Assembly: GCA_964473105.1 (NCBI GenBank)
Contig: CAYYNQ010000097.1
Coordinates: forward strand, 8,468-72,467
Source of the DNA: an uncultured Candidatus Sumerlaeota bacterium
GTDB taxonomy: Bacteria > Sumerlaeota > Sumerlaeia > MVZB01
Direction of reading: 5' to 3'
Length of the DNA stretch: 64,000 nt
Positions 13,730 through 44,993 of the stretch are shown piece by piece (positions within the stretch are counted from its first letter, which is position 1; each line of letters starts with the position of its first letter). A model generated the notes under the pieces. The model made no database searches. It was not told the origin of the DNA and was given only the letters and a program-made list of their open reading frames with translations. Position numbers and translations under genes: made by a program.

Positions 13730-14932
13730 TTACGTCGATCCCGACTCCGAAACGGGTTGAGACAGGAGGGCCAGATAAGATTCATCAAGACGTTTTGCAG
13801 AAGTTTTCCAACTGTAGGTTTGTAGTGCGCTGGGCGGGATTTTGTTGGGCCATGTGGTTTCGCTGACGATGCGGGGAAACTCATCGATTGGAGCAATCTG
13901 TATATGGGATTCCAGTGCAGGATAACCCCTGGTGCCGAATTCGGTTGATACCACGGGCAGTCCTGTCGCGGCATACTCAGCAAGTTTGATATTGCTGCCC
14001 GATCCGGATATCATGGGATTCAAGCCTATGTCAGCCGATTGCAGCCATGGCAGGATATCGTCGGCCCTCCCAATTAGGGTCACATTGGGCGGGATCGCAC
14101 CCTTTACGTCCAGCAATCGGCATATGTCCCCAACGATATAGTATTTTACCCTCGGATCCTTTGTTGAAGGAGCGATTGTTTCCATGATGGCCCGAGCCGC
14201 CTCAATGTTGGGAGGCGTGCCGGAACCTGTGAAGATCACCGCCTTTTCACTGTTTTTTATTCCAAGGGCCTCCCTTGTTGTTTTTCTTCTCTCCGGATCC
14301 GTTGGCCGAAAACGTTTCTCGTCAAATCCATTTGGGACAATATGGATGCGATCCGGATTAACATTACATTTTTCAGATATCCAGTCAGCATCCTGCTTGC
14401 TGCATGTGCAGATTGCGTCTGCATTTTCAATAGCTCCGCGCTCATTTACGAGAAGTCGTTTTCGCCAAAACCCGCCGAGCAGCCTGTCGTTCAGCTGTCC
14501 TTCCCAGTATTGAGACTCAATATTGTGAGCATTGTATACAATGCGTGCGTGACTCCGGACTACGGGGTAAATATTGACGAACCATGGGAAATCGAACTGG
14601 ATGATGTCGTAACGGTTCAGAGTGCAAATCTGCCTGAAAAGGTTTCGCAGGTGGCCGAACCATGAAGGTAATTCGGTCATGGGCATCAGGTGCAGACGGT
14701 TAAGGAGCAGGGGAATATCCAGGAGGAGACTATGCTGTTGCTCAACTTGGAATCCGGGCCGGATCTCCTTGCGTAATGCGGGGTAATTTCGGGCGACGAA
14801 ACCGATGAGACGGACATTGTGGCCGGAATTCGCCAGTGATCCGGCAAGATGTCTTGAACGGAGTTCACCGCCGAAGCGTGGATCTGCAACGGTTCCCGAG
14901 GTAACAATCAGGATTTTTAAATGGGAGGACAT
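13730..14932 (-). CDS. Glycosyltransferase family 4 (GT-B, group 1)
   Basis: N-terminal 'KILIVTSGTVADPRFGGELRSRHLA' and a C-terminal GT4 sugar-donor-binding region. 400 aa. Confidence 0.8.
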   Translation of the reverse strand: MSSHLKILIVTSGTVADPRFGGELRSRHLAGSLANSGHNVRLIGFVARNYPALRKEIRPGFQVEQQHSLLLDIPLLLNRLHLMPMTELPSWFGHLRNLFRQICTLNRYDIIQFDFPWFVNIYPVVRSHARIVYNAHNIESQYWEGQLNDRLLGGFWRKRLLVNERGAIENADAICTCSKQDADWISEKCNVNPDRIHIVPNGFDEKRFRPTDPERRKTTREALGIKNSEKAVIFTGSGTPPNIEAARAIMETIAPSTKDPRVKYYIVGDICRLLDVKGAIPPNVTLIGRADDILPWLQSADIGLNPMISGSGSNIKLAEYAATGLPVVSTEFGTRGYPALESHIQIAPIDEFPRIVSETTWPNKIPPSALQTYSWKTSAKRLDESYLALLSQPVSESGST

Positions 14933-16175: not shown

Positions 16176-18620
16176 TCAATCGATTTGGCCCGGAGCCTGA
16201 AAATCCGTGTTGAGCGGTCCCCTGTATACCAGTTCGGCCTCCCGGAGCGTAATATGTTGTCTTCCATAATCACCGGGAACAAAATCTGTCATCCATGTTG
16301 GCAGCCTGCCATCGGTTCCTTCGTGGGCTATGGATCGAATGAACAGCATTTCAAAAGGTTTTTCGGATTTGAACATGATTCTGAATGTTTCTGGATCCCT
16401 TGAGTTAAATACCATCGAGCCGACCGCATTCTCACCTGGCGGGACGTAAATATAGACGACGGGCCATTGTCCCCGTGGCGCCAGCAGGTTTGCGCTACGG
16501 GTCCCACCGCCCTTCAGGCGGAGTTCGTATTCACCGGAGGGACTGTCCGGGCATGTAAACAGATGCTCCCGGGTGCCGGTCAGTCGGTATCCCTGTAGAA
16601 TCATGTTTTTGTATGACCGATGACCGGACCAGATCGTGGGCTGGATATGATGAACAAGGGGGTGGATGTAACGGAAGAGTCGTCGGATCGATTCTCCCTT
16701 CGTTTTGAAGGGGGAATCGCCGGGTGTCCTGATCTCGATATTGAATGGCAGAGTCCGCAGTGATTTATCCCCCGGCGTTATCCATGCATCCTTGATAGGA
16801 AAGACGTCGATGCGGTATTTCCCGTCAGGAAAATATTTGGGGACTTCAAATATGTATTCCACTGGTATGTGAGAATTTTGAGGGAGGCATAACACGCCTC
16901 CTGTCATGTAGGAAAAACCGCCTGTCCTGATAGGGACGGGAACTGGTTTGTCTAGGCCAAGATGCCACCATCGGAGACCCATTAACCTTGTCTGTTCAAG
17001 GTGTTTCCATGTTATTTCCAGTGCGAAGCTGGTTCCGCGGTCGATCGACAAGGTTTTATCGTCCAGGGAATACCGGTTGGCCGGGTATATCCCGCCTCCA
17101 GGCCAGATGACCCCCGGTTCCTCGATCAGTTGTTCCCGGTCGGGATTGACCGGATTCTGTGGCACCCGGCCGGCCCTTTCATCATTGTCGAACAAAATCC
17201 CGTTCGGTTCACCGGGCAGGCTTGCCCACCGGATCCAGCTGACGGATGCAAGATCAAACACTTTTGGATCAAAACGGTCGATTGAATAAAAGAACCGGCT
17301 CTCTGGGGTCTTGCTGATATTGCCGAAACCGGTTCCGGTGATCAGGCTGACAGATCCTTCCATATCGTCGTTATATGCCTGTTCGTCGACAGGGATGTGT
17401 TTGCGATATACATCCACTACCTGTTCTATCTCGGGGCGCGGTTCAGCCGGATGTCCGAGTCTGGGGCCCAGTGGGTATAAAATCATGACCAGGGCGATGC
17501 AAGACAGGATACCCATGAAGGTTTCCACCGGCCTGCCGCGGGGCAGATGCCGGGACAACCTTGTTTCCTGCGCCGTAAAATTATTCCAGGCAATGGCGGC
17601 AAGGAGAAACATCTGATCCATTCCCCAGGCGGCCAGTGCCATTCCGGGAATGAGCAGATGACAAAAGTTGTAGACATTGATGTTGACGAGTAAATAGAAG
17701 CAAACCAATGCCGTGATGGCCGTGACCTGAAAAATCCACGGCGAGCGGAAGAGGCCGATCAATGCAAAAAAGATACCCGGCATGGTGAAGACCAGGACGA
17801 TCCGGGACAGGTACACCTTGTCCCAGAGTGTGGTTCCGAACCAACTCGCAAAATCGATATAGGTCACCCTGAACTGGTCTTTGAAAGAAAGCGCAATCTG
17901 GACTGGGTTGATATTGATCATCGCAAGAACGAAGGCGGTGGCGGCGATGATCAATATCAAAGCCACGATTCGCGTGCTTCGGGAGAGCCGACGTCCGCAA
18001 AGCAGGGCCAATAGAACGGACGGTAGCCAGACAAGCGAGGTTAACTTGGCAAGGGCTGAAAACATCAAAAGGAGGATCATGCAGAGCAACGGCCCGTATG
18101 TGTATCGGTTCTGTTGATGCAGTCTGAAGAAGAAAACCAATGCTCCGGCCTGGAACAGAAGGGCGAGTGGTTCGGCTAGGATAAGGCGGGAAATATCGGC
18201 ATGGAATGGATTCAAGCCGATCGCTGCGGTGAAAAACAGCGTGATTCGTCGGCGCGAGGCAATGGTTGTTGCCGGGCGGGCGGTGGCCATGAAAACTGCC
18301 AGCGCGGCCAGCAGGATAGTCAGTATGCTGAAGATGACGTTATAGGTGCGTGCAAGCGTCCATATTTCACAATTGAAAATCCGGCAGAGGCCGGAGGTTT
18401 TCCCGCTGATCCATGGAAGAATCTGAAGCTCGAGCCAGGATCTTCCGACATGGATAGATCCGGAACCGTCCATGATACGCTCAGTGAAAACATGGCTGGA
18501 ACGTTGCCGATCGGCCGGAAAATCGACTGGCGGCATGTCCAGTTGATTGGATCGGATATAAAGGGAGGCTACAAGAATCAGGAGGAATATTGGCCAGAAA
18601 CCCCGGCGGCTTTCGAGCAT
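16176..18620 (-). CDS. Large integral-membrane protein with C-terminal extracytoplasmic domain (putative GT-C fold glycosyltransferase, YfhO/ArnT/PMT-like)
   Basis: 815-856 aa. The N-terminal roughly 420 aa contain at least 10 predicted hydrophobic helices, and the C-terminal roughly 430 aa are soluble. It sits inside the glycan cluster. Start chosen at the Met at 18620 (MLESRRGFWPIFLLI); the ORF is open to 18746, which would overlap the DegT gene. Confidence 0.45.
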   Translation of the reverse strand: MLESRRGFWPIFLLILVASLYIRSNQLDMPPVDFPADRQRSSHVFTERIMDGSGSIHVGRSWLELQILPWISGKTSGLCRIFNCEIWTLARTYNVIFSILTILLAALAVFMATARPATTIASRRRITLFFTAAIGLNPFHADISRLILAEPLALLFQAGALVFFFRLHQQNRYTYGPLLCMILLLMFSALAKLTSLVWLPSVLLALLCGRRLSRSTRIVALILIIAATAFVLAMININPVQIALSFKDQFRVTYIDFASWFGTTLWDKVYLSRIVLVFTMPGIFFALIGLFRSPWIFQVTAITALVCFYLLVNINVYNFCHLLIPGMALAAWGMDQMFLLAAIAWNNFTAQETRLSRHLPRGRPVETFMGILSCIALVMILYPLGPRLGHPAEPRPEIEQVVDVYRKHIPVDEQAYNDDMEGSVSLITGTGFGNISKTPESRFFYSIDRFDPKVFDLASVSWIRWASLPGEPNGILFDNDERAGRVPQNPVNPDREQLIEEPGVIWPGGGIYPANRYSLDDKTLSIDRGTSFALEITWKHLEQTRLMGLRWWHLGLDKPVPVPIRTGGFSYMTGGVLCLPQNSHIPVEYIFEVPKYFPDGKYRIDVFPIKDAWITPGDKSLRTLPFNIEIRTPGDSPFKTKGESIRRLFRYIHPLVHHIQPTIWSGHRSYKNMILQGYRLTGTREHLFTCPDSPSGEYELRLKGGGTRSANLLAPRGQWPVVYIYVPPGENAVGSMVFNSRDPETFRIMFKSEKPFEMLFIRSIAHEGTDGRLPTWMTDFVPGDYGRQHITLREAELVYRGPLNTDFQAPGQID

Positions 18621-18684
18621 GCCGAAATGGTGTTCACGGTTGCGCCATTGAATGACAGGGCTGTCATGAGAATCCGTCACAGAT

Positions 18685-19863
18685 TCAATTTTGACCGGAC
18701 AAGAAATTTTGAATATTTTCAACGACGTAGTGTTGTTGAGACTCATTTAATTCGGGAAAGATCGGGAGTGCGAGTGCCTCCCGGCTAGCCTGTTCACTGA
18801 TGGGCATCATGCCTTTGCGGTAGCCGTGGTTCTTAAAGCAGGGCTGGAGGTGCAAGGGGAGTCCATAATATACATTGCAACCGATCCCGTTTTCCCTCAA
18901 GCAGGCCAAGAGTCCATCGCGTCTTTCCGGGTGCACGCGGATGACATACTGATGATACACATGGTTTTCAGAGATTGTCACAGCCGGGAATACGGTCGTC
19001 GGATCTAGCTGATCGGGGGATTGTGAACAGATGCCAGCCTCGCTGAGCAGCCGCCCATACCGGGCGGCATTCTCTGCCCTTGCCCGGCACCAGTCCTCCA
19101 GTAGAGGCAGTTTGACTCTGAGGACGGCAGCCTGCAGTGCGTCCAGTCGGGAATTGATTCCCAAAATCTCATGAATATACTGGCCGGTTTGGCCGTGGTG
19201 TCGCAACAGGCGCAGTTTCATACCCAGTTTCTCATCATGGCAGGTCATGAGGCCACCGTCCCCGAAACAACCTAGGTTTTTAGATGGAAAGAAACTGAAA
19301 CACCCGATATCACCCACTGTGCCGGCCTTTTTGCCATGCCAGGTTGCCCCAATTGCCTGGGCGGTGTCCTCAATTATTGCAATATCGTTCCCGACCTTCA
19401 GGTCCAGGAGTCTCTGCATATCGACACACTGGCCAAAAATATGGACGGGGATGATGACTCGCGTGCGGGGTGTGATCAGCGATTCAAGTAGACGGGTATC
19501 CATGTTGAAGCTGACCGGGTCAATATCACAGAAGACCGGTTTTAAGCCAAGGCGTACGATGGCTCCAACAGTTGCAAAAAAAGTGTAGGGGGATGTGATG
19601 ACCTCATCGCCAGGTTTCAAATCCAGGGCCATTAATGCGATTAGCAGTGCATCTGAACCTGAGGCGCAACCAATTGCATGAGATGAACCAAGCCATTCCG
19701 AGATCTCCTTTTCGAATAATTCCACCTCGGATCCCAAGACAAACCGCTGGGACTCAATAATACGCCGGACGGAAGATTCGATAGATTCCCTTATGGTCTC
19801 ATACTGTGATCCGAGATCCAGCATTTTGACGGAAGTGACTGGGTTGATTTGTTGTGAACTCAT
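18685..19863 (-). CDS. DegT/DnrJ/EryC1/StrS-family PLP-dependent sugar aminotransferase
   Basis: 'GSEVELFEKEISEWLGSSHAIGCASGSDAL' and 'FSFFPSKNLGCFGDGG' (PLP-lysine region). 392 aa. Confidence 0.85.
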   Translation of the reverse strand: MSSQQINPVTSVKMLDLGSQYETIRESIESSVRRIIESQRFVLGSEVELFEKEISEWLGSSHAIGCASGSDALLIALMALDLKPGDEVITSPYTFFATVGAIVRLGLKPVFCDIDPVSFNMDTRLLESLITPRTRVIIPVHIFGQCVDMQRLLDLKVGNDIAIIEDTAQAIGATWHGKKAGTVGDIGCFSFFPSKNLGCFGDGGLMTCHDEKLGMKLRLLRHHGQTGQYIHEILGINSRLDALQAAVLRVKLPLLEDWCRARAENAARYGRLLSEAGICSQSPDQLDPTTVFPAVTISENHVYHQYVIRVHPERRDGLLACLRENGIGCNVYYGLPLHLQPCFKNHGYRKGMMPISEQASREALALPIFPELNESQQHYVVENIQNFLSGQN

Positions 19864-19916
19864 GCTGTCCCTCTTAAATGATCTGGAATGGTGATGATGA
19901 ATGCCCTTGCCTTCAA

Positions 19917-20621
19917 TCAGGATCTGACCCGGGTCACGGGTTCCAGCCTGCCCGATATTTCACGGTAATGTTCACCGGTTTCGGGACATTGGAACAGTCC
20001 CGGATCTCCGTCGATATTTTGCAGCTTGAGTCCGGCCCTGCCGACCCAGCCCGTTTTGTTTGCCGGGACTCCCACCATGAGCGCATACGGTGGGACATCC
20101 CTGGTCAGGACCGTGCCGGCCCCAACGAAGGCATATTCCCCGATCTCGACTCCGCAGACAATTGTACAGTTTGCGCCCAGGGTGGCCCCCCTTCCGACCC
20201 GGGTCTCCTCGTAAAGGTCCCTGCGGCTAATTTCGCTGCGGGGCATCCTGATGTTTGTGAAGACAACGGAAGGTCCACAGAAAACATGGTCTGAAAACCG
20301 GACCCCATCGTAGAGTGAGACATTATTTTGGATTTTGCATCCATCACCGATTCTGACTCTTCCCGAAACAAAGACATTTTGGCCAAGATTACAGTTCCTC
20401 CCGATCTCGGCCCCGGCAACCACGTGACTAAAATGCCATATCCTCGTGCCCGCGCCGATGGAACATGGCTGGTCGATGACAGCACTCGGGTGACATTCAA
20501 ACGTTTTGGATGACTTGTTCTTCAAAGGCCCAATGACCCGCCTGGATCGTTTCTCCACGGAGATACAGCCGATTTTATTGTCCGTTTCACCCCGCCGCCA
20601 TGCAACCCAAAAGATTTCCAC
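19917..20621 (-). CDS. Hexapeptide-repeat (left-handed beta-helix) acyltransferase, probable sugar N-acetyltransferase
   Basis: Repeated [LIV]-G-x-x-x-x hexapeptides: 'IGAGTRIWHFSHVVAGAEIGRNCNLGQNVFVSGRVRIGDGCKIQNNVSL'. The true start is probably internal. It is adjacent to the DegT aminotransferase. Confidence 0.7.
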   Translation of the reverse strand: MEIFWVAWRRGETDNKIGCISVEKRSRRVIGPLKNKSSKTFECHPSAVIDQPCSIGAGTRIWHFSHVVAGAEIGRNCNLGQNVFVSGRVRIGDGCKIQNNVSLYDGVRFSDHVFCGPSVVFTNIRMPRSEISRRDLYEETRVGRGATLGANCTIVCGVEIGEYAFVGAGTVLTRDVPPYALMVGVPANKTGWVGRAGLKLQNIDGDPGLFQCPETGEHYREISGRLEPVTRVRS

Positions 20622-20714
20622 GCAGCTGACCCGGGCCAGGGCATGGCGGACGGATTATTCAGAAAGTTGATATTGAAAGACTTCAGGAAATCCATGCGGG
20701 CTCCGGCAGAATGT

Positions 20715-21680
20715 CTATTTGATCGGGACGGGTTGTATGGAGCGGTTGTTCCGATTCATTAGATAGTTTCGGTAAGCGGCGTATTTTCCCCGCGTGACTT
20801 CTAAGGTCAGCAACCAAGTAATGGGATGCCAGTCATTTTCAAGCAGGCAACGGACAATGCCCGCCAGATAGGCCATGGGCCATCGCCTCGGTTTTTTGTG
20901 GATCCCCCTTTCCAGCAGGAGGTAATACGATGAGCGGTGAGAATGAAAAACGAGACGCTTCAGGTAGGTCAGTGTGAGCCTCGCTCCCGGGATCAGGTGT
21001 TTCAGGGACAGTTCCGGGAAATAACCGATCGCGTAACCGAGATCGAGTGTGGTGAACAGCATGTCGATGTCTTCTGCGCCGGTCAGAAGATTTCCCTTAC
21101 GCCCATACTCGCAACGCTTGGGATTTGATTCGAGCTGGCGGGAATATTCAACGGCTAGGTTTTTTCGTATGATCATGCCCGCGCCATAGGGGAACCATGG
21201 CTTGTAGGTCTGCAGATGAAAGGCCCAAATCGGGGCCTGGCCGTGGTCGGCCACGGCCAGATAGGGCATGAACCGGTAGCTACCGCGGGGGGGGGGGATT
21301 ACAAACTGCCCCAGCCAATTTCCGCCGAGAGCGCCGACGAAGGGTTTTTCCCTCATGATTTCCATGGCGTTGATCAGATAATCGGCATGCAGGAGATTAT
21401 CATCGTCAACAAATATCAACAGTCTGCCCTCTGCCTCGTGAATGGCCCGAAGTCTTGCGTGGGTCAGGCCGAGGGTTCGTTCAACCACGAGTCGCCCGTG
21501 CAAAAATCCCGAGAGATCAATCCATTCCGAGATGGGGCGGTTGCTCATATTGTCTACCAGGATCAACTCCCACTGGTCCTGGGGATAAGTCTGGTTAGAT
21601 AGCGCACTGAGGACGGCCCGCAGGTAATGTCTTTGAGGGTTGTGCGTACAAACACAGACGCTGACATCGAGTTGGCTCAT
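20715..21680 (-). CDS. Glycosyltransferase family 2
   Basis: 'VSVCVCTHNPQRHYLRAVLSALSNQTYP...LILVDNMSN...LIFVDDDN' GT-A signature (DxD). Contains an in-frame C11 tract (plus-strand G11 at 21287-21297) encoding 'IPPPR'. Confidence 0.8.
   Translation of the reverse strand: MSQLDVSVCVCTHNPQRHYLRAVLSALSNQTYPQDQWELILVDNMSNRPISEWIDLSGFLHGRLVVERTLGLTHARLRAIHEAEGRLLIFVDDDNLLHADYLINAMEIMREKPFVGALGGNWLGQFVIPPPRGSYRFMPYLAVADHGQAPIWAFHLQTYKPWFPYGAGMIIRKNLAVEYSRQLESNPKRCEYGRKGNLLTGAEDIDMLFTTLDLGYAIGYFPELSLKHLIPGARLTLTYLKRLVFHSHRSSYYLLLERGIHKKPRRWPMAYLAGIVRCLLENDWHPITWLLTLEVTRGKYAAYRNYLMNRNNRSIQPVPIK
21287..21297. repeat. Homopolymeric G11 (C11 on coding strand) tract inside the GT2 gene
   Basis: 'taccgc ggggggggggg attac' read directly from the sequence. 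It lies in frame in the minus-strand GT2 ORF. Confidence 0.9.
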
Positions 21681-21816: not shown

Positions 21817-23016
21817 TCAGGGATTACGGTCGAGGGTTTTGACGTATTCCTCGTAGTTCTTTCTGACCTCTGAGATCGCGTCACCTCCAAACTTGTTGAG
21901 AAAAGCCCATGCAACGGCATAGCCCACTAACGCTTCCCCAACGATCCCGGCAGCGGGGAGCGCACAGACATCACTTCGCTCCTTGCTGGAGTCGTAGGCT
22001 TTTTTGGTCTTGAAATCCACGGATTCGATTGGACGCATCAGTGTGGATATCGGCTTCTTGGCGACCCGGACAATGATCGGTTCGCCATTAGTCATCCCTC
22101 CTTCAATACCCCCAGCCCGGTTGGTTTTCCGGTAAAAACCGCCACTGGGCCCGTGTCCCTCGAGACAGTCTTCCATACTTTCCGAATAATATATCGCATC
22201 GTGCACTTCACTGCCTTTGCGGCGGGCGGCTCCAAAGCCCATGCCGATCTCCACACCCTTGATGGCCTGCATACTCATGATGACTTGGCCAATCTTCCCG
22301 TCCAATTTCTCATCCCAGTTCATTACGTTGCCCAAGCCTGGCGGGACACCCGTCACGATGACTTCAAAAATTCCGCCCGCGGTGTTCTTATCGTCCCGGC
22401 ACTCATCAATCAGGGCCATCATTTCACCAACAATTACGGGATTTCCGACTCGCATCTCGTTGTTTTCCGCATTTTCACGAATTTCTGAGAAGGTCAGCCC
22501 CGATGTGTCGGAGCGAATACCGCAAAGTTCAGTCACGTGTGAGAAAATCTTGATCCCGAATTCCCCAAGTAATGTTTTGCATAGCGCCCCGACAGCGACC
22601 TGCGTTGTGGTCGCACGCGCGGAGGCCCGTTCCAGGATGTTTCTAGCGTCCTCATGATCGAATTTTTGTACACCGGGAAGATCTGCATGCCCCGGCCGCG
22701 GCCGTGTGATGGTTCGCTTGGAATCGTAGTTGTCGACAACGGCAGGCGACATCACATCGGTCCAGTTCCGCCAGTCACTGTTTTCCACGATCATGGTCAC
22801 GGGTGATCCTATCGTCAATCCGTGACGTACCCCGGAAACAAAACGGACCGTATCGGTTTCAATTTTCATTCGCCCGCCGCGGCCATAACCGCCCTGACGT
22901 CTCGCCAAGTCTTGGTTGATGTCCTCCTCCCGAACTGGGAGATTGGAGGGCAGCCCCGATATGATCGCGGTCAACTGTGGACCATGCGATTCACCGGATG
23001 TCATGTATCGAATCAT
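21817..23016 (-). CDS. aroC: Chorismate synthase
   Basis: 'MTSGESHGPQLTAIISGLPSNL', 'ARRQGGYGRGGRMKIE' and 'RSDVCALPAAGIVGEA' conserved blocks. 399 aa. Confidence 0.9.
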   Translation of the reverse strand: MIRYMTSGESHGPQLTAIISGLPSNLPVREEDINQDLARRQGGYGRGGRMKIETDTVRFVSGVRHGLTIGSPVTMIVENSDWRNWTDVMSPAVVDNYDSKRTITRPRPGHADLPGVQKFDHEDARNILERASARATTTQVAVGALCKTLLGEFGIKIFSHVTELCGIRSDTSGLTFSEIRENAENNEMRVGNPVIVGEMMALIDECRDDKNTAGGIFEVIVTGVPPGLGNVMNWDEKLDGKIGQVIMSMQAIKGVEIGMGFGAARRKGSEVHDAIYYSESMEDCLEGHGPSGGFYRKTNRAGGIEGGMTNGEPIIVRVAKKPISTLMRPIESVDFKTKKAYDSSKERSDVCALPAAGIVGEALVGYAVAWAFLNKFGGDAISEVRKNYEEYVKTLDRNP

Positions 23017-23148: not shown

Positions 23149-24108
23149 CTAGACCCAAAGAGCCCGGTTGGATTGAAACCATTCCACCTGACGTTTCAGT
23201 CCTTCATCCATCTTCACCTCGGGAACGAATTCAAGATCCTGCCTGGCGCGTGATGTATCGGCAAAAGTATGGATGACATCACCATTCTGCCGGTTCATTC
23301 GCTCGATATTCAAGGGGCAGTCCAGAAGAACCTCCAGTTTCTCGAGGACGGTATTGATTGTCAGCCGGTTTCCTCCCCCGATGTTGTAAACCTCTCCTGG
23401 ACGTCCGCGTTCGGCTGCCAGCAGGTTGGCCTGAACGGCATCGCTGATATAGGTGAAATCCCGGGTTTGTTCCCCGTTGCCGTAGAGTGTGATTGGCCGA
23501 CCAGCCAAACCTGCGCGAATGAACTTCTGGAAGGCCATATCGGGGCGTTGCCGCGGGCCATAAACCGTAAAATAACGAAGTGATACCGTTGGCACCTTGA
23601 AGTTGTGCCAATAGAGAAAGCAGAGATGTTCAGCCGCCAGTTTTGAAACACCGTAGGGCGAAACCGGCTGTGGGCGGTGTTCTTCCATCATGGGAAGCAG
23701 GTTGGTTTCACCGTAGACCGAGGAAGATGAAGCGTAAACCATCCGGATCCTGCGTCCTTTTAGTGCCTCGAGAAGATGTTGAGTCGCGAGTACATTCCAC
23801 TCAGTGTAGCAGTTGAATGAACGGCCCCAACTAGCGCGCACACCCGCTTGTGCAGCCTGGTGATATACGGTGTCGACTTCCTCAAGCAGGTTAGGCCAGT
23901 CGACATTCAAGATAGATTTCTCGATAAAGGAAAATCCCGGATAGGATGCCAGCGACTCAAGGTTGGCGCGTTTCAAACGGATGTCATAGTAGTCGGTTAG
24001 AGAATCGATGCCGATCACTCGTGAACCCATCTGGAGCAGGTATTCGCAGATGGATGAACCAATGAATCCGGCGGCACCGGTAACAATTATCTTCTTGGAC
24101 GGTGACAT
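23149..24108 (-). CDS. NAD-dependent sugar epimerase/dehydratase (UDP-glucuronate/GlcNAc 4-epimerase-like SDR)
   Basis: 'KKIIVTGAAGFIGSS' Rossmann motif, 'YASSSSVYG' and 'YGVSKLAAE' (YxxxK catalytic motif). Start taken at MSPSKK (24108). Confidence 0.8.
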   Translation of the reverse strand: MSPSKKIIVTGAAGFIGSSICEYLLQMGSRVIGIDSLTDYYDIRLKRANLESLASYPGFSFIEKSILNVDWPNLLEEVDTVYHQAAQAGVRASWGRSFNCYTEWNVLATQHLLEALKGRRIRMVYASSSSVYGETNLLPMMEEHRPQPVSPYGVSKLAAEHLCFLYWHNFKVPTVSLRYFTVYGPRQRPDMAFQKFIRAGLAGRPITLYGNGEQTRDFTYISDAVQANLLAAERGRPGEVYNIGGGNRLTINTVLEKLEVLLDCPLNIERMNRQNGDVIHTFADTSRARQDLEFVPEVKMDEGLKRQVEWFQSNRALWV

Positions 24109-24198
24109 TAGCCTGAAAGAACACCTTGAATTAATAAAAATACACCGATTATAACCGGCATGGAATGTTTCCAAGGAAAACTACTTGCCTCGGCATGA

Positions 24199-24852: not shown

Positions 24853-25529
24853 GGCCGACCCGACTCCTTGTCCGAATTTGTCAGGTGTGCTGGCTTCCCA
24901 GCAAGCTCATAACTTCTGAGAGTGTTGGATCCAGGGTTCAGGGTGATCTGGAATTGGTCGCCTCCTCCGATCAGAGGCGGTCTGCCAGGATAGATGTAAC
25001 TCAGGTTGTATCCCCCATCACCCCTGAGTGTGGATTTCGGGCGGGAGTAATAAATGTATGGGGTTTCAAGGGTCATGCCGTTGGGTCCCTGATAATAGAC
25101 GTCATCCCTCATGTAAATGTCATTTTGGGCAATTCCCCACTCGTGTCGCGCAGCCAGCCACATCCGGCCCCGGCCTGCCTTCAGGTTTCCCGTGTTCATT
25201 TCATTCTCATAAAACCTCATCTCAATATTCCTCAACTCGGCGATGTCCTCACTTTGGTCAAGATCCATCCTATCTGCCAGGATGATCTGTCGGATTTCGC
25301 CATTGTATGTAACCTCGGTCCGAACCCCTTCCATGGAGATGGAGGGTGTTAGCGGGACGAACAAACCGGGGTTCGCATTCAATCCTGCGGCGGTGTCGAC
25401 GTGATCTGCCCCGCCCGATGCGATCATGAAAAGATTTAGCAGGACACAGGCGCTTCCCGCATAGATCCCCATGAGCAGGAAAGGCCTGGGTCGGCATATA
25501 TTTGAGCAATAATTTCGGAATTTTTGCAA
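24849..25529 (-). CDS. LptC-like membrane-anchored periplasmic protein (putative)
   Basis: Single N-terminal TM 'FLLMGIYAGSACVLLNLFMIA' followed by a beta-rich domain of about 180 aa. Operon partner of the LptA-like gene. Confidence 0.45.
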   Translation of the reverse strand: MQKFRNYCSNICRPRPFLLMGIYAGSACVLLNLFMIASGGADHVDTAAGLNANPGLFVPLTPSISMEGVRTEVTYNGEIRQIILADRMDLDQSEDIAELRNIEMRFYENEMNTGNLKAGRGRMWLAARHEWGIAQNDIYMRDDVYYQGPNGMTLETPYIYYSRPKSTLRGDGGYNLSYIYPGRPPLIGGGDQFQITLNPGSNTLRSYELAGKPAHLTNSDKESGRP

Positions 25530-25890: not shown

Positions 25891-27180
25891 GTGACACTGC
25901 GGATTACGGGATCCCCAAGGTGTCGTGGGGGCAGGAATCTTGATTCCATTCATGTGGATTCCAAACTAAAGTCTAGATGTCTGTCGATGGGCAGACCTGA
26001 TTTTATGGTCTGCGGGAGGTTGAGTTTGAAACAAAGGCCACGGATTCTCAGGATCCTCAGTCGAATGGCTGTGGGGGGTGTCCAGAACGGGGTCCTCAAC
26101 ACGCTTAAAAGATCTAACCCCAGGCTGTATGATTACACGGTGTTGTGCACCAAAAAGGCGGGGAAACGAGCCGCTGAGATTGAAGCCCTTCGGATACCGG
26201 TTATTCCGTGCAAGACGCTGCCTCCTTGGGATCCTTACCAGATCTGGCGTTTGTCGCGTACCATTCGACGGATTTCACCCGACCTTGTTCATGTCCACAT
26301 GGCCCCGACGGTCATCCCCGGGGTCGCGGCATCGAGATTGGCCGGCGTGAAGCGAATCATTATCCAGCATCACAGTGATTACACCCGCTACTGGTCCCAA
26401 ATGAACGGGCTGTTGCGCGCGTGGGAGTGGTCGATGACGCGGCGCATTGCGGGTTATGGGGGACTGGTTTGCGTCTCAAAAACGGTGGCCAAGGCAACGG
26501 CGGGCCAGCTTGGACTTGACCCTGCCTGTCTCAAGGTCATACCAAACGGTGTTGACCTGGATGTTTTCCGGCCAGACCGGGAAGGGGAGGACCCAAGGGT
26601 TGAATGGCAACTTGACCCCGGAACACCACTTGTCTATCACGTTTCACGTTATCTCGAATCAAAAAGAATTGATGACTTCATGGAGGCCGCCTCAATTGTC
26701 ACGCGACGCTGGAAAGGTATAGGGCCCTCACCTGCATTCATCAACATGGGCGGGGGGCCAGCACATCTGGAGCTGTTTTATGAACATAAACTCTCGAAAT
26801 ACGATCGTGCCGTGCGGATCCGCCTCGAAGGAGAAAGATTGGATCTCGCCCGACTCCTGCCTTGGGGTGATGTCGGTGTAATGGCAAGCGAGAATGAGGG
26901 TTGCCCCAATACGATCTTGGAATATATGGCTGCAGGTTTACCGATGGCGGTGACGGATATCCCACCCATTCTGGAACTTTTAAGGGCCGGACAGGATGCT
27001 TTGGTGTCCGCCCCGCGTGATGCCGGTGCACTCGCTGATAATATCGAGGAACTCCTGCGAAATCGTGACCGATCCCGGTCACTCCGCGGAAGTGCGATTC
27101 AATGGGTTCGGCAATACGACTGGAGCGCTGCCGCGCAGTCCTATGAGAAACTCTACGCTTGTTTCCTGCAGGCACCGTGA
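25891..27180 (+). CDS. Glycosyltransferase family 4
   Basis: 'LRILSRMAVGGVQNGVLNT' N-terminal GT4 motif and C-terminal 'NEGCPNTILEYMAAGLPMAVTDI' (the E-x7-E region). The actual start is probably internal (about 26007-26053). Confidence 0.75.
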   Translation: MTLRITGSPRCRGGRNLDSIHVDSKLKSRCLSMGRPDFMVCGRLSLKQRPRILRILSRMAVGGVQNGVLNTLKRSNPRLYDYTVLCTKKAGKRAAEIEALRIPVIPCKTLPPWDPYQIWRLSRTIRRISPDLVHVHMAPTVIPGVAASRLAGVKRIIIQHHSDYTRYWSQMNGLLRAWEWSMTRRIAGYGGLVCVSKTVAKATAGQLGLDPACLKVIPNGVDLDVFRPDREGEDPRVEWQLDPGTPLVYHVSRYLESKRIDDFMEAASIVTRRWKGIGPSPAFINMGGGPAHLELFYEHKLSKYDRAVRIRLEGERLDLARLLPWGDVGVMASENEGCPNTILEYMAAGLPMAVTDIPPILELLRAGQDALVSAPRDAGALADNIEELLRNRDRSRSLRGSAIQWVRQYDWSAAAQSYEKLYACFLQAP

Positions 27181-29017: not shown

Positions 29018-31009
29018 CTAGAGTCGGTTGGCGACCAGATCCTCAACCACTTTGGGGTCGGCCAGCGTGGTCGTGTCGCCGATTTGATCGACGAGGTCTT
29101 CGGCGATCTTTCGCAGTATCCGCCGCATGATCTTTCCGGAGCGGGTTTTGGGCAGGGCGGGTGCAAATTGGAGTTTGTCGGGCGTGGCGATCGGCCCGAT
29201 TTCCCGGCGCACATGGCGGATAAGTTCCTCACATAGTCCAGCCGATGGTTCAACCCCCTCAACCACTGTGACGAAGGCATACAATCCCTGCCCCTTGATT
29301 TCATGTGGCATCGGAGCAACCGCGGCCTCGGCTACTTGTTCATGACTGACGAGTGCACTTTCAACCTCGGCCGTTCCAATACGATGGCCGGACACGTTGA
29401 CAACATCATCGATTCTGCCCATTAGCCAGTAGTCACCGTCCTTGTCAATCCTGCAGCCATCGCCTGTGAAATACATGTCGTTGAACATCGTGAAATAGGT
29501 GTCGATAAAACGGTTATGGTCACCCCAAGTGGTGCGCATCATGCCGGGCCAAGGTTTCCTGATGCATAACTTGCCACCCTCATTGGGGTTGCATTCAACT
29601 CCGTCATCGCGCAGGACGACTGGTTCAACGCCGAAGAATGGTCGGTTGGCGCTTCCGGGTTTTGTGATGTGCGCACCGGGCAGAGCCGTTAACATGTGAC
29701 CGCCGGTTTCGGTCTGCCACCAAGTGTCAACGATCGGAAGGATTCCACCTCCGATATGCCGGTGGTACCACATCCAGGCCTCGGGGTTGATGGGCTCACC
29801 CACTGTACCCAATACCCGCAAGCTGCCTAGGTTATATTTTTCGGGCCATAAGGGCCCCTTGCTGATCAGAGCACGGATGGCCGTTGGGGCTGTGTAAAAG
29901 GCCGTGGCGGAATATTTTTCACAGATCTGCCAGTAACGGCCCGGGTCGGGATATGTCGGTATGCCCTCGAACATGATGTTGGTTGCCCCGTTGGCGAGCG
30001 GACCGTAGGTGATGTAACTATGTCCCGTGATCCAGCCGATGTCAGCCGAACAGAACCAGATATCATCATCGTGAATATCAAAAACATACCTGTGAGTCAG
30101 ACTGGTCCACAGGAGGTAACCGGCGCTAGTATGGACAACCCCTTTGGGCTTGCCGGTCGATCCCGAGGTGTAGAGTATGAAAAGCGGATCCTCGGCATTC
30201 ATTGCCTCGGGGGGGCATGAAGCGGAGGACTTCGACATCAGGTCATGATACCAGTGATCTCTTCCCGCCTTCATGCCACAGTTCTCATCATTCCTGCGAT
30301 ATACGATGATATTCTTTATGGAAGGGGACTTGTCGGCCGCATCATCGGCGATGTCCTTGAGGCGGATGGACTTTCCAGATCTGAGTGAGACATTGCAAGT
30401 AACCAGCAGTTTGCAGGCCGAATCATTGATCCGATCTGCCAGCGAGTCTGCGCTGAATCCTGCAAAGACCACCGAATGGATCGCGCCTATCCGCGCACAA
30501 CCAAGCATGACAATGGGAAGTTCCGGGACCATCCCCATGTAGATTGCCACGCGGTCACCCTTTCCAATACCCATCAACTTGAGCACATTTGCGAATCTGC
30601 AGACCTCCGTATGCAATTGTTCGTAGGTGAGGGTTTGGCTGTCTTCATCGGGTTCGCCTTGCCAGATGATTGCCGGCTTGGATTTTTTTTCACCTTCAAG
30701 GTGTCGGTCCAGGCAGTTCACTGAAATGTTGAGTTGTCCATCCTCGAACCAGGTATGGCTGACCTTCCGCTCGGCCGTGTCCCATTGATGACGACATGCG
30801 ACCGTGGGTTTTTTCATCCAGGCCAGGTTATCCGCCTGCTCGAGCCAGAAGGCATCGGGATTCTCGATGGAACGCCGATACATTTCCTCATACCGCTGCA
30901 GGTTGATGTGGGCACGCCCAACCATATCCCGGTGGGGGGGGAAGGCCCGCTTCTCGGTCATCAGGTTGTCGGTAGAGATGACTTTTGTCGAATCGCTCAC
31001 TTCAATCAT
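29018..31009 (-). CDS. acs: Acetyl-coenzyme A synthetase (AMP-forming)
   Basis: 'YRRSIENPDAFW' N-terminal block, 'YTSGSTGKPKGVVHT' AMP-binding motif and 'PKTRSGKIMRR' C-terminal motif. The ORF is open to 31111; likely starts are at 31009 or 30961. Confidence 0.9.
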   Translation of the reverse strand: MIEVSDSTKVISTDNLMTEKRAFPPHRDMVGRAHINLQRYEEMYRRSIENPDAFWLEQADNLAWMKKPTVACRHQWDTAERKVSHTWFEDGQLNISVNCLDRHLEGEKKSKPAIIWQGEPDEDSQTLTYEQLHTEVCRFANVLKLMGIGKGDRVAIYMGMVPELPIVMLGCARIGAIHSVVFAGFSADSLADRINDSACKLLVTCNVSLRSGKSIRLKDIADDAADKSPSIKNIIVYRRNDENCGMKAGRDHWYHDLMSKSSASCPPEAMNAEDPLFILYTSGSTGKPKGVVHTSAGYLLWTSLTHRYVFDIHDDDIWFCSADIGWITGHSYITYGPLANGATNIMFEGIPTYPDPGRYWQICEKYSATAFYTAPTAIRALISKGPLWPEKYNLGSLRVLGTVGEPINPEAWMWYHRHIGGGILPIVDTWWQTETGGHMLTALPGAHITKPGSANRPFFGVEPVVLRDDGVECNPNEGGKLCIRKPWPGMMRTTWGDHNRFIDTYFTMFNDMYFTGDGCRIDKDGDYWLMGRIDDVVNVSGHRIGTAEVESALVSHEQVAEAAVAPMPHEIKGQGLYAFVTVVEGVEPSAGLCEELIRHVRREIGPIATPDKLQFAPALPKTRSGKIMRRILRKIAEDLVDQIGDTTTLADPKVVEDLVANRL

Positions 31010-31331
31010 TTCCTTCCCGCCAAACTGGCCGGTTTTCACCTCGGAACCCGGTCGAACTATACCCGTGCCTCCTAGGCCCTGTCTGGTGATGACGACCCGG
31101 TGCCTTCTCACGGGCTTGAATTAAATCCGGCGGCAACTTCACCCCGAATCTAATGTTTCAGGTTGCAATGCGCAAGGCCGACTTCAGATCAGAATCGGCA
31201 CCAGACCAGGGGGAATGGTTGATTTCAGTCCACATTATGTCCAGTTAAGTTGACCGATAATATGATTATTAATTATGCGTTGATTCTTTTAATATGATAC
31301 GGTTATCCGCTTGGGCTGGAGCCTGTAAGGA

Positions 31332-44621: not shown

Positions 44622-44993
44622 AATCCAACGGGATCATAAGCATAATTCAAGTTGGGAATCGATGTAATTCGTGCATATTTCAGGGAAATGCAGCGAGGTT
44701 CCACCATAGAGAAAGTTTATATCCTCCAGTCACCTGTAAAGAGAACCCAAGGGGGGGGCACCGAATCAGATCGATGTGTCGGCAATTCCCATTCTTGTGG
44801 GGCCCTCTTCGTGTTCCCTTTGTGTTTGATTCGCTTCCGGGAAGGCCAAGACAGAACGGGAGGGGTGTCTTGGCCACAGTCCGCTCCTCACTTTATTCAT
44901 TGAACCCGGGGAGCTAGACGATGACGAAGCCAGGATCTTTGCTGCCGTTCGGGCATAAAAATCACTTTAAGATGGATTCCATTAAATCCAAAT

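Follow-up and report, generated by a model that had tools for sequence, protein, structure and literature searches.

Poly-G/C tracts of at least 9 nt in lgtA, lgtC and lgtD of Neisseria and in futA and futB of Helicobacter pylori undergo slipped-strand mispairing that switches a glycan epitope of the LOS/LPS, and the LOS/LPS glycosyltransferases of Campylobacter likewise carry poly-G/C contingency tracts. The Neisseria and H. pylori tracts vary in length both between and within strains and lie where conservation is low and changes in length are tolerated. Campylobacter jejuni, which lacks the classical mismatch repair system, contains dozens of such tracts. Slipped-strand mispairing is elevated in G/C runs as long as 11 nt, and to our knowledge runs of this length are hypermutable in every tested system, repair-proficient ones included.

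Homopolymers in prokaryotes are slippage-prone also in the general case (PMC2831843). In the C. jejuni gene wlaN, eight G correspond to the ON state and six or nine G to the OFF state, and the lengths vary among isolates and are linked to phenotype (PMC7142995). The surface-protein gene pmpG of Chlamydia contains an intragenic poly-G/C tract subject to slipped-strand frameshifts; its length varies across many genomes, and frameshifted copies cluster with intact ones (PMC6740158). The complete genome of Akkermansia muciniphila, a cultured Verrucomicrobium, has 17 genes in which a run exceeds 8 bp, and homopolymer phase variation was proposed in the genome paper for the capsule genes Amuc_1413 (G8) and Amuc_2098 (C10) (PMC3048395).

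The tract considered here is an 11-nt run (C11) in a family 2 glycosyltransferase (GT2) gene, located in the window, i.e., the whole 64-kb stretch of DNA that was analysed. Like the tracts in the beta-1,3-galactosyltransferase genes wlaN and cgtB of C. jejuni, it is an intragenic G/C tract in a surface-glycan glycosyltransferase at which neighbouring lengths truncate the product; unlike wlaN, it displays a single length (11) and is known from sequence alone. Like the Neisseria lgt and H. pylori fut tracts, it is poly-G/C, spans at least 9 nt and lies in a glycosyltransferase gene, but in contrast to them it overlies a family-conserved PPxW turn. The location inside a gene is also that of the Chlamydia pmpG tract, whereas the length-variation signature of pmpG is missing. 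As in A. muciniphila, the proposal is a purely genomic one made for polysaccharide genes of a non-pathogen, at the same level of evidence; unlike the genome-wide statistics of that study, it concerns 64 kb of a Sumerlaeota-like metagenome-assembled genome (MAG) of an uncultivated organism. Membership in the class of contingency loci requires demonstrated length polymorphism or switching, and C11 is known at one length. In our judgement there is about an even chance that C11 is a slippage hotspot, born by chance on a conserved proline motif and kept in the ON frame by purifying selection.

Glycosyltransferase gene and its genomic context

The product of the gene carrying the tract matches the Pfam families PF00535 (50.4 bits, cutoff 23.3) and PF13641 (31 bits, cutoff 27), and the score for PF00535, above the gathering threshold, bears out its original assignment to GT2. 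In an alignment of 30 homologs, residues D92, D93 and D94 are invariant, and this DDD motif supplies the DxD signature; a further block of invariant residues at positions 164–239, including D204 and D206, is encoded downstream of the tract. The AF2 model of the protein has a mean pLDDT of 90.6, and the closest solved structures found by Foldseek are the GT-A enzymes TarP, TarS and RmlT (E-values as low as 1e-13). The best NCBIfam match is HpsE (NF038302), a hormogonium polysaccharide glycosyltransferase. Its score of 141.4 bits is under the curated cutoff of 300, and the enzyme is therefore described here as HpsE-like, i.e., as a relative and not as an equivalog.

Table 1. Features of the GT2 locus, with positions in the 64-kb window
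Feature	Position	Strand	Remarks
GT4 glycosyltransferase	13730..14932	-	
856-aa protein	16176..18746	-	no Pfam or NCBIfam match; hydrophobic stretches in N-terminal half
DegT/DnrJ/EryC1-type sugar aminotransferase	18685..19863	-	
Hexapeptide-repeat sugar N-acetyltransferase, NeuD/PglB/VioB-like	19917..20558	-	directly downstream of GT2
GT2 (GT-A fold) glycosyltransferase, HpsE-like, 321 aa	20715..21680	-	Pfam, alignment, AF2 model, Foldseek
Zone of assembly disagreement around the tract	21282..21318	.	window-specific bases at 21282, 21284, 21301, 21315, 21318
C11 codons	21285..21299	-	ATC CCC CCC CCC CGC = I128 P129 P130 P131 R132, in frame
NAD-dependent sugar epimerase/dehydratase (SDR)	23149..24174	-	
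GT4 glycosyltransferase	25891..27180	+	

The neighbours of the GT2 gene (Table 1) include sugar-modifying enzymes and GT4 glycosyltransferases, which makes the surface-glycan cluster of the original prediction a fair description. A GT4-family phosphosugar transferase is also found among them, with genes for chorismate synthase and LptA-like proteins in between. The 856-aa protein, whose position is conserved in the relative with 80% identity (832 aa in L003), could be a not yet characterised polymerase or a protein acting in glycan processing. The adjacency of GT2 and AroC, encoded at window positions 21817–23016, appears conserved; in several relatives both homologs are located on equal-sized longest contigs (6521, 56246, and 50642 nt).

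The organism had been assigned to the PVC group, in which a switch of this kind was thought to be undescribed. This origin is not supported, since the nearest named relatives of both AroC (71% identity) and GT2 (49% identity) belong to Candidatus Sumerlaeota / candidate division BRC1. Verrucomicrobial GT2 homologs exhibit only 36–41% identity, and the Limisphaerales locus L055 has 57% identity in its best-matching segment. The presumed novelty was mistaken even for the PVC group, where A. muciniphila (PMC3048395) and Chlamydia pmpG (PMC6740158) provide precedents.

The C11 tract and the conserved proline motif

The tract is an uninterrupted run of 11 G on the forward strand (21287–21297), corresponding to C11 on the coding strand, and occupies nt 384–394 of the GT2 ORF, about 40% of the way into it. 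Its translation as an in-frame IPPPR peptide was correctly predicted, as evidenced by the codons listed in Table 1. No other homopolymer in the window is longer than 8 nt, the next being nine runs of 8 nt each, and the homopolymer count thus agrees with the earlier statement that the run is far longer than the rest. Contingency loci are recognised by an uninterrupted run of about 8–9 nt or more inside an ORF or promoter, and C11 is such a run; as regards a phasome, the 64-kb window holds this one run longer than 8 nt. Runs of G8 are present at 825–832 (at 76% of ORF 166–1035), at 30934–30941 (at 8% of the acetyl-CoA synthetase-like ORF 29018–31111 on the reverse strand) and at 44751–44758 (intergenic, between 44621 and 44994).

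An iid model predicts about 0.05 G/C runs of at least 11 nt per window, and a first-order Markov model about 0.15. An empirical control, comprising 965 kb around 141 other homologous loci, contained no G/C run of at least 11 nt and two of at least 9 nt. The low model expectation and the empty control make C11 unusual at the scale of the window; in a genome of several Mb, a few runs of this length should arise by chance.

The consensus of the 30 aligned homologs at the tract is GEFExxPPxW, with FExxPPxW retained family-wide; at least 90% of them have P130, and many have a third proline. In the AF2 model, residues 129–131 form an ordered turn joining strand 115–126 to helix 132–141. The PPxW motif is also kept across 139 homologous DNA loci, where it is written in mixed proline codons. 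The C-run at this site measures 2–5 nt in 135 of the 139 loci, 6 nt in two and 8 nt in one (L047), and attains 11 nt only in the lineage of the window; in every one of the 138 homologous loci outside this lineage it is no longer than 8 nt. The nearest ortholog (80% amino acid identity; L003–L005) reads CGC AAA CCT CCC CGC, encoding RKPPR. Non-repetitive coding of the prolines in relatives had been named in advance as an argument against a switch, and it was found in part, the relatives keeping PP(P) in mixed codons. A protein scan of genome and metagenome contigs for strain variants returned sequences of about 45–57% identity as the closest ones, and yielded motif statistics and no tract-length series.

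Usage of CCC, the top proline codon in the window (33%), gives a probability of about 3.6% per PPP that all three prolines are spelled CCC, which is not negligible at genome scale. CCC repeats are not used at the two other PPP motifs of the window. Judged from these comparisons, C11 is a lineage-specific nucleotide feature on top of a conserved peptide motif, and its formation would need just one x-to-P substitution and the synonymous choice of the preferred codon. A long G/C run in a glycosyltransferase gene is by itself no evidence of an evolved switch when the preferred codon spells out a conserved proline motif at that place.

The conservation of the motif, the CCC preference, the uniform length of 11 and the ordered turn in the AF2 model would also fit a fixed polyproline, i.e., a neutral codon accident at which mismatch repair limits slippage and only the PPP turn is functional, possibly with EF-P-dependent translation. 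This explanation is quite improbable in our view: runs of 11 G/C are hypermutable as a matter of general knowledge, and assemblies repeatedly fail at the site; for homopolymers generally, slippage is documented (PMC2831843).

Changes in tract length have pronounced predicted consequences. The in silico products of C9, C10, C12, and C13 alleles comprise 132, 168, 133, and 169 aa, respectively, versus 321 aa for C11. A change of one unit thus toggles the gene in silico between a full-length product and a truncated one that has lost the invariant residues 164–239, and the ON/OFF truncation by a single base (to 133 or 168 aa) proposed for this gene was reproduced. The truncated products, being devoid of the conserved C-terminal half, are presumably inactive. 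We infer all three of the raised slippage rate, the loss of function upon truncation and the phenotypic consequence. Recoding programmed at the level of transcription or translation was considered for the run and rejected for lack of support, the zero-frame product being the conserved full-length enzyme.

If C11 is a chance-born hotspot, the conserved proline turn of the HpsE-like GT2 would have come to be written wholly in the preferred codon CCC between ATC and CGC, giving rise to the 11-nt run. The run would then most likely act as a mutational hotspot, yielding frameshift variants by the loss or gain of one base. The C10 (168 aa) and C12 (133 aa) variants would lose the catalytic half of the enzyme, one sugar-transfer step of the surface polysaccharide would be dropped, and a reverse slip would restore the gene. 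Several observations run against this hotspot reading. G/C runs of at least 11 nt are absent from the 965-kb control, and CCC repeats are avoided at the other PPP motifs of the window. The gene class and context are those of classic contingency loci, and the tract is kept in a strain with 19% fourfold-site divergence (chance P of about 0.43). Three single-run contigs end at the tract, which could reflect real length heterogeneity.

Tract length and assembly support

The locus is carried by five assemblies from at least three pipelines and four runs or samples, all of them consensus sequences, which hide minority alleles. Besides the window, these are an ENA scaffold (L001/L144; 99.9% identical to the window) and three Logan contigs, derived from SRR5002379 (L147; 99.95% identical), DRR683874 (L148; 99.9% identical) and DRR683879 (L002; 92% identical to the window in nucleotide sequence, with a fourfold-site divergence of 19% from L001). 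The tract is exactly C11 in all five, and neither of the two full-length versions has a disrupted reading frame. Sequences virtually identical to window positions 19674–21300 occur in SRR5002379 and DRR683874, which belong to different archives or projects; this suggests that a near-clonal population is widespread or that the source is shared.

No OFF allele is present among the five consensus assemblies of the locus. A protein-database search with the predicted C10 product revealed no near-identical truncated or frameshifted allele; it returned only proteins of up to 283 aa, with P0001 unlisted, and its reach is uncertain. The survival of the tract in the divergent strain (L002) has a probability of about 0.43 by chance, calculated for four unchanged sites at 19% fourfold-site divergence, so that the retention of C11 in this strain is uninformative on selection.

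These data bear on the possibility that C11 is an evolved contingency locus, maintained by second-order selection for the reversible ON/OFF switching of one glycan epitope, e.g., under pressure from phages or grazers. Such a locus, the chief competitor of the hotspot reading, is possible but somewhat doubtful. Its length of 11 nt exceeds the 8–9 nt that suffice in C. jejuni wlaN (PMC7142995), it lies at 40% of the ORF of a glycosyltransferase in a glycan cluster, and a one-base change abolishes the catalytic half of the product. The run is also very rare by the empirical base rate and is present in the 92%-identical strain as well, although its retention there is not significant. The evidence opposed to such a locus comprises the single length in five assemblies, the lack of an OFF allele in the database searched and the occurrence of only one such tract in 64 kb; moreover, the tract encodes a conserved structured motif, so that a length change by three bases would not be neutral.

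The comparison of lengths among strains had been proposed as a check, with uniformity counting against a switch, and the constant 11 nt in five of five assemblies goes part of the way in that direction. Overall, the tract, its frame, the GT2 identity, the glycan context and the truncation on which the original prediction of a phase-variable switch relied have stood, whereas the single length and the conservation of the motif in relatives weigh against the switch itself. Since consensus assemblies may hide minority OFF subpopulations, the switch hypothesis is weakened and not refuted. In-frame C11 is the majority allele in all sampled populations, and the tract is therefore read as a hotspot, incidental or incipient, that purifying selection holds ON, and not as a demonstrated evolved switch.

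All three Logan single-run contigs begin at the tract or 2 or 3 nt upstream of it (L002:1-13, L147:1-14, and L148:1-11; window 21297–21300), while their other ends lie in unremarkable sequence; across three different sequencing runs, assembly thus breaks systematically at the homopolymer. The contig from DRR683874 (L148) starts exactly at the first C of the tract, and the start of that from SRR5002379 (L147) coincides with an A/T difference at 21301. For the contingency locus, the breaks of all three contigs at the tract are a favourable sign, and the start of L148 at the first C fits a coexisting longer allele; the breaks and flank mismatches are, however, equally explained by Illumina homopolymer errors (PMC11140927) in low-coverage data.

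The window and the ENA scaffold (L144) differ at 15 positions in 14.7 kb, five of which are within 21 nt of the tract (Table 1) and six within 42 nt of the scaffold ends. The five differences flanking the tract are all transversions and all nonsynonymous, and the window carries the derived, non-consensus state at each. Four residues are altered as a result (K121N, C122W, E127V, and W133G), and C122, E127, and W133 match the family consensus. After the tract, the ENA scaffold (L001) and the Logan contigs L002, L147, and L148 read GCTGGAGC, while the window reads GCGGTAGC; the three Logan contigs contradict the window at both downstream positions they cover. The five flanking bases of the window are probably errors or private variants. 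The ENA scaffold contains a 23-N gap at window positions 24944–24975 and error clusters at its ends, indicating low coverage. This gap marks a second weak assembly spot, at which another Logan contig (L145) also stops (position 24944), next to a short inverted repeat rich in GC (CCGCCTCTGATCGGAGGAGGCG).

Homopolymers induce substitution errors on Illumina platforms (PMC11140927), and the breaks and mismatches are most simply explained by low coverage, with poor read support at the site and Illumina errors provoked by the homopolymer. Much the same pattern would result from genuine variation in tract length or from repeat-associated local mutagenesis. In the latter process, described by McDonald et al., substitutions cluster beside a homopolymeric G run (PMC3114760, PMC4928981), as do 5 of the 15 window-scaffold differences within 21 nt of the tract; in yeast, repeat-associated mutagenesis needed G13 or longer. 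The variant flank bases occur in one assembly and are contradicted by the others where covered, so that technical error is a simpler explanation than local mutagenesis. A diversity-generating retroelement as the cause of the flank substitutions was rejected, as the changes are not adenine-specific.

Worded as one proposition, a genuine selected switch in an uncultivated free-living member of Sumerlaeota (BRC1), with the breaks and flank substitutions resulting from real heterogeneity and local mutagenesis at the G run, is unlikely. If switching is real, slipped-strand contingency loci would shape surface glycans in uncultivated environmental phyla too, beyond host-adapted pathogens. Glycan phase variation by simple sequence repeats, known mainly from such pathogens, would then extend to an environmental candidate phylum, with phage predation as a plausible driver, and C11 would offer a concrete site for tracking in metagenomic time series.

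The 11-nt length could also be an accident of the consensus, the true tract being shorter, longer or interrupted. Five apparently erroneous window bases beside the tract, and the N gap and end errors that point to low coverage of the ENA scaffold, are in line with such an assembly or sequencing artefact. A +1 frameshift divides a distant GT2 homolog (P0273), located on a 538-kb contig, into 144-aa and 194-aa calls; it falls in a C6 run, again at the PPP motif (L143:1877-1890). Homopolymer indels are a common error in long-read assemblies; the name and size of this contig suggest an assembly of that type, and the frameshift, probably a homopolymer error, was rejected as evidence of phase variation. 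For C11, an artefact is hardly credible, given the exact length in five assemblies from at least three pipelines and four runs or samples and the intact frame in both full-length versions. In more general terms, long G/C runs locally degrade the consensus of MAGs, causing contig breaks and miscalled flanking bases.

Long runs in homologous loci

The GT2 homolog of a Brevifollis sp. MAG (L047) has the second-longest C-run at the motif among the 139 loci, with its PPP region written as TCT CCC CCC CCT (C8). Another GT2 homolog contains a G9 run (TGG GGG GGG GCG; L066:3270-3278) that coincides with the conserved glycine motif GAxGG, which precedes the PPP motif by ten codons. In a Verrucomicrobiales MAG, the 252-aa gene located immediately upstream of the GT2 homolog, which by the look of its sequence we take to be an FkbM-type methyltransferase, carries an in-frame G10 run (ACC GGG GGG GGG GTT, encoding TGGGV; L021:5758-5767). 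This run is a further candidate slippage site in a glycan cluster, here of a genuine PVC organism.
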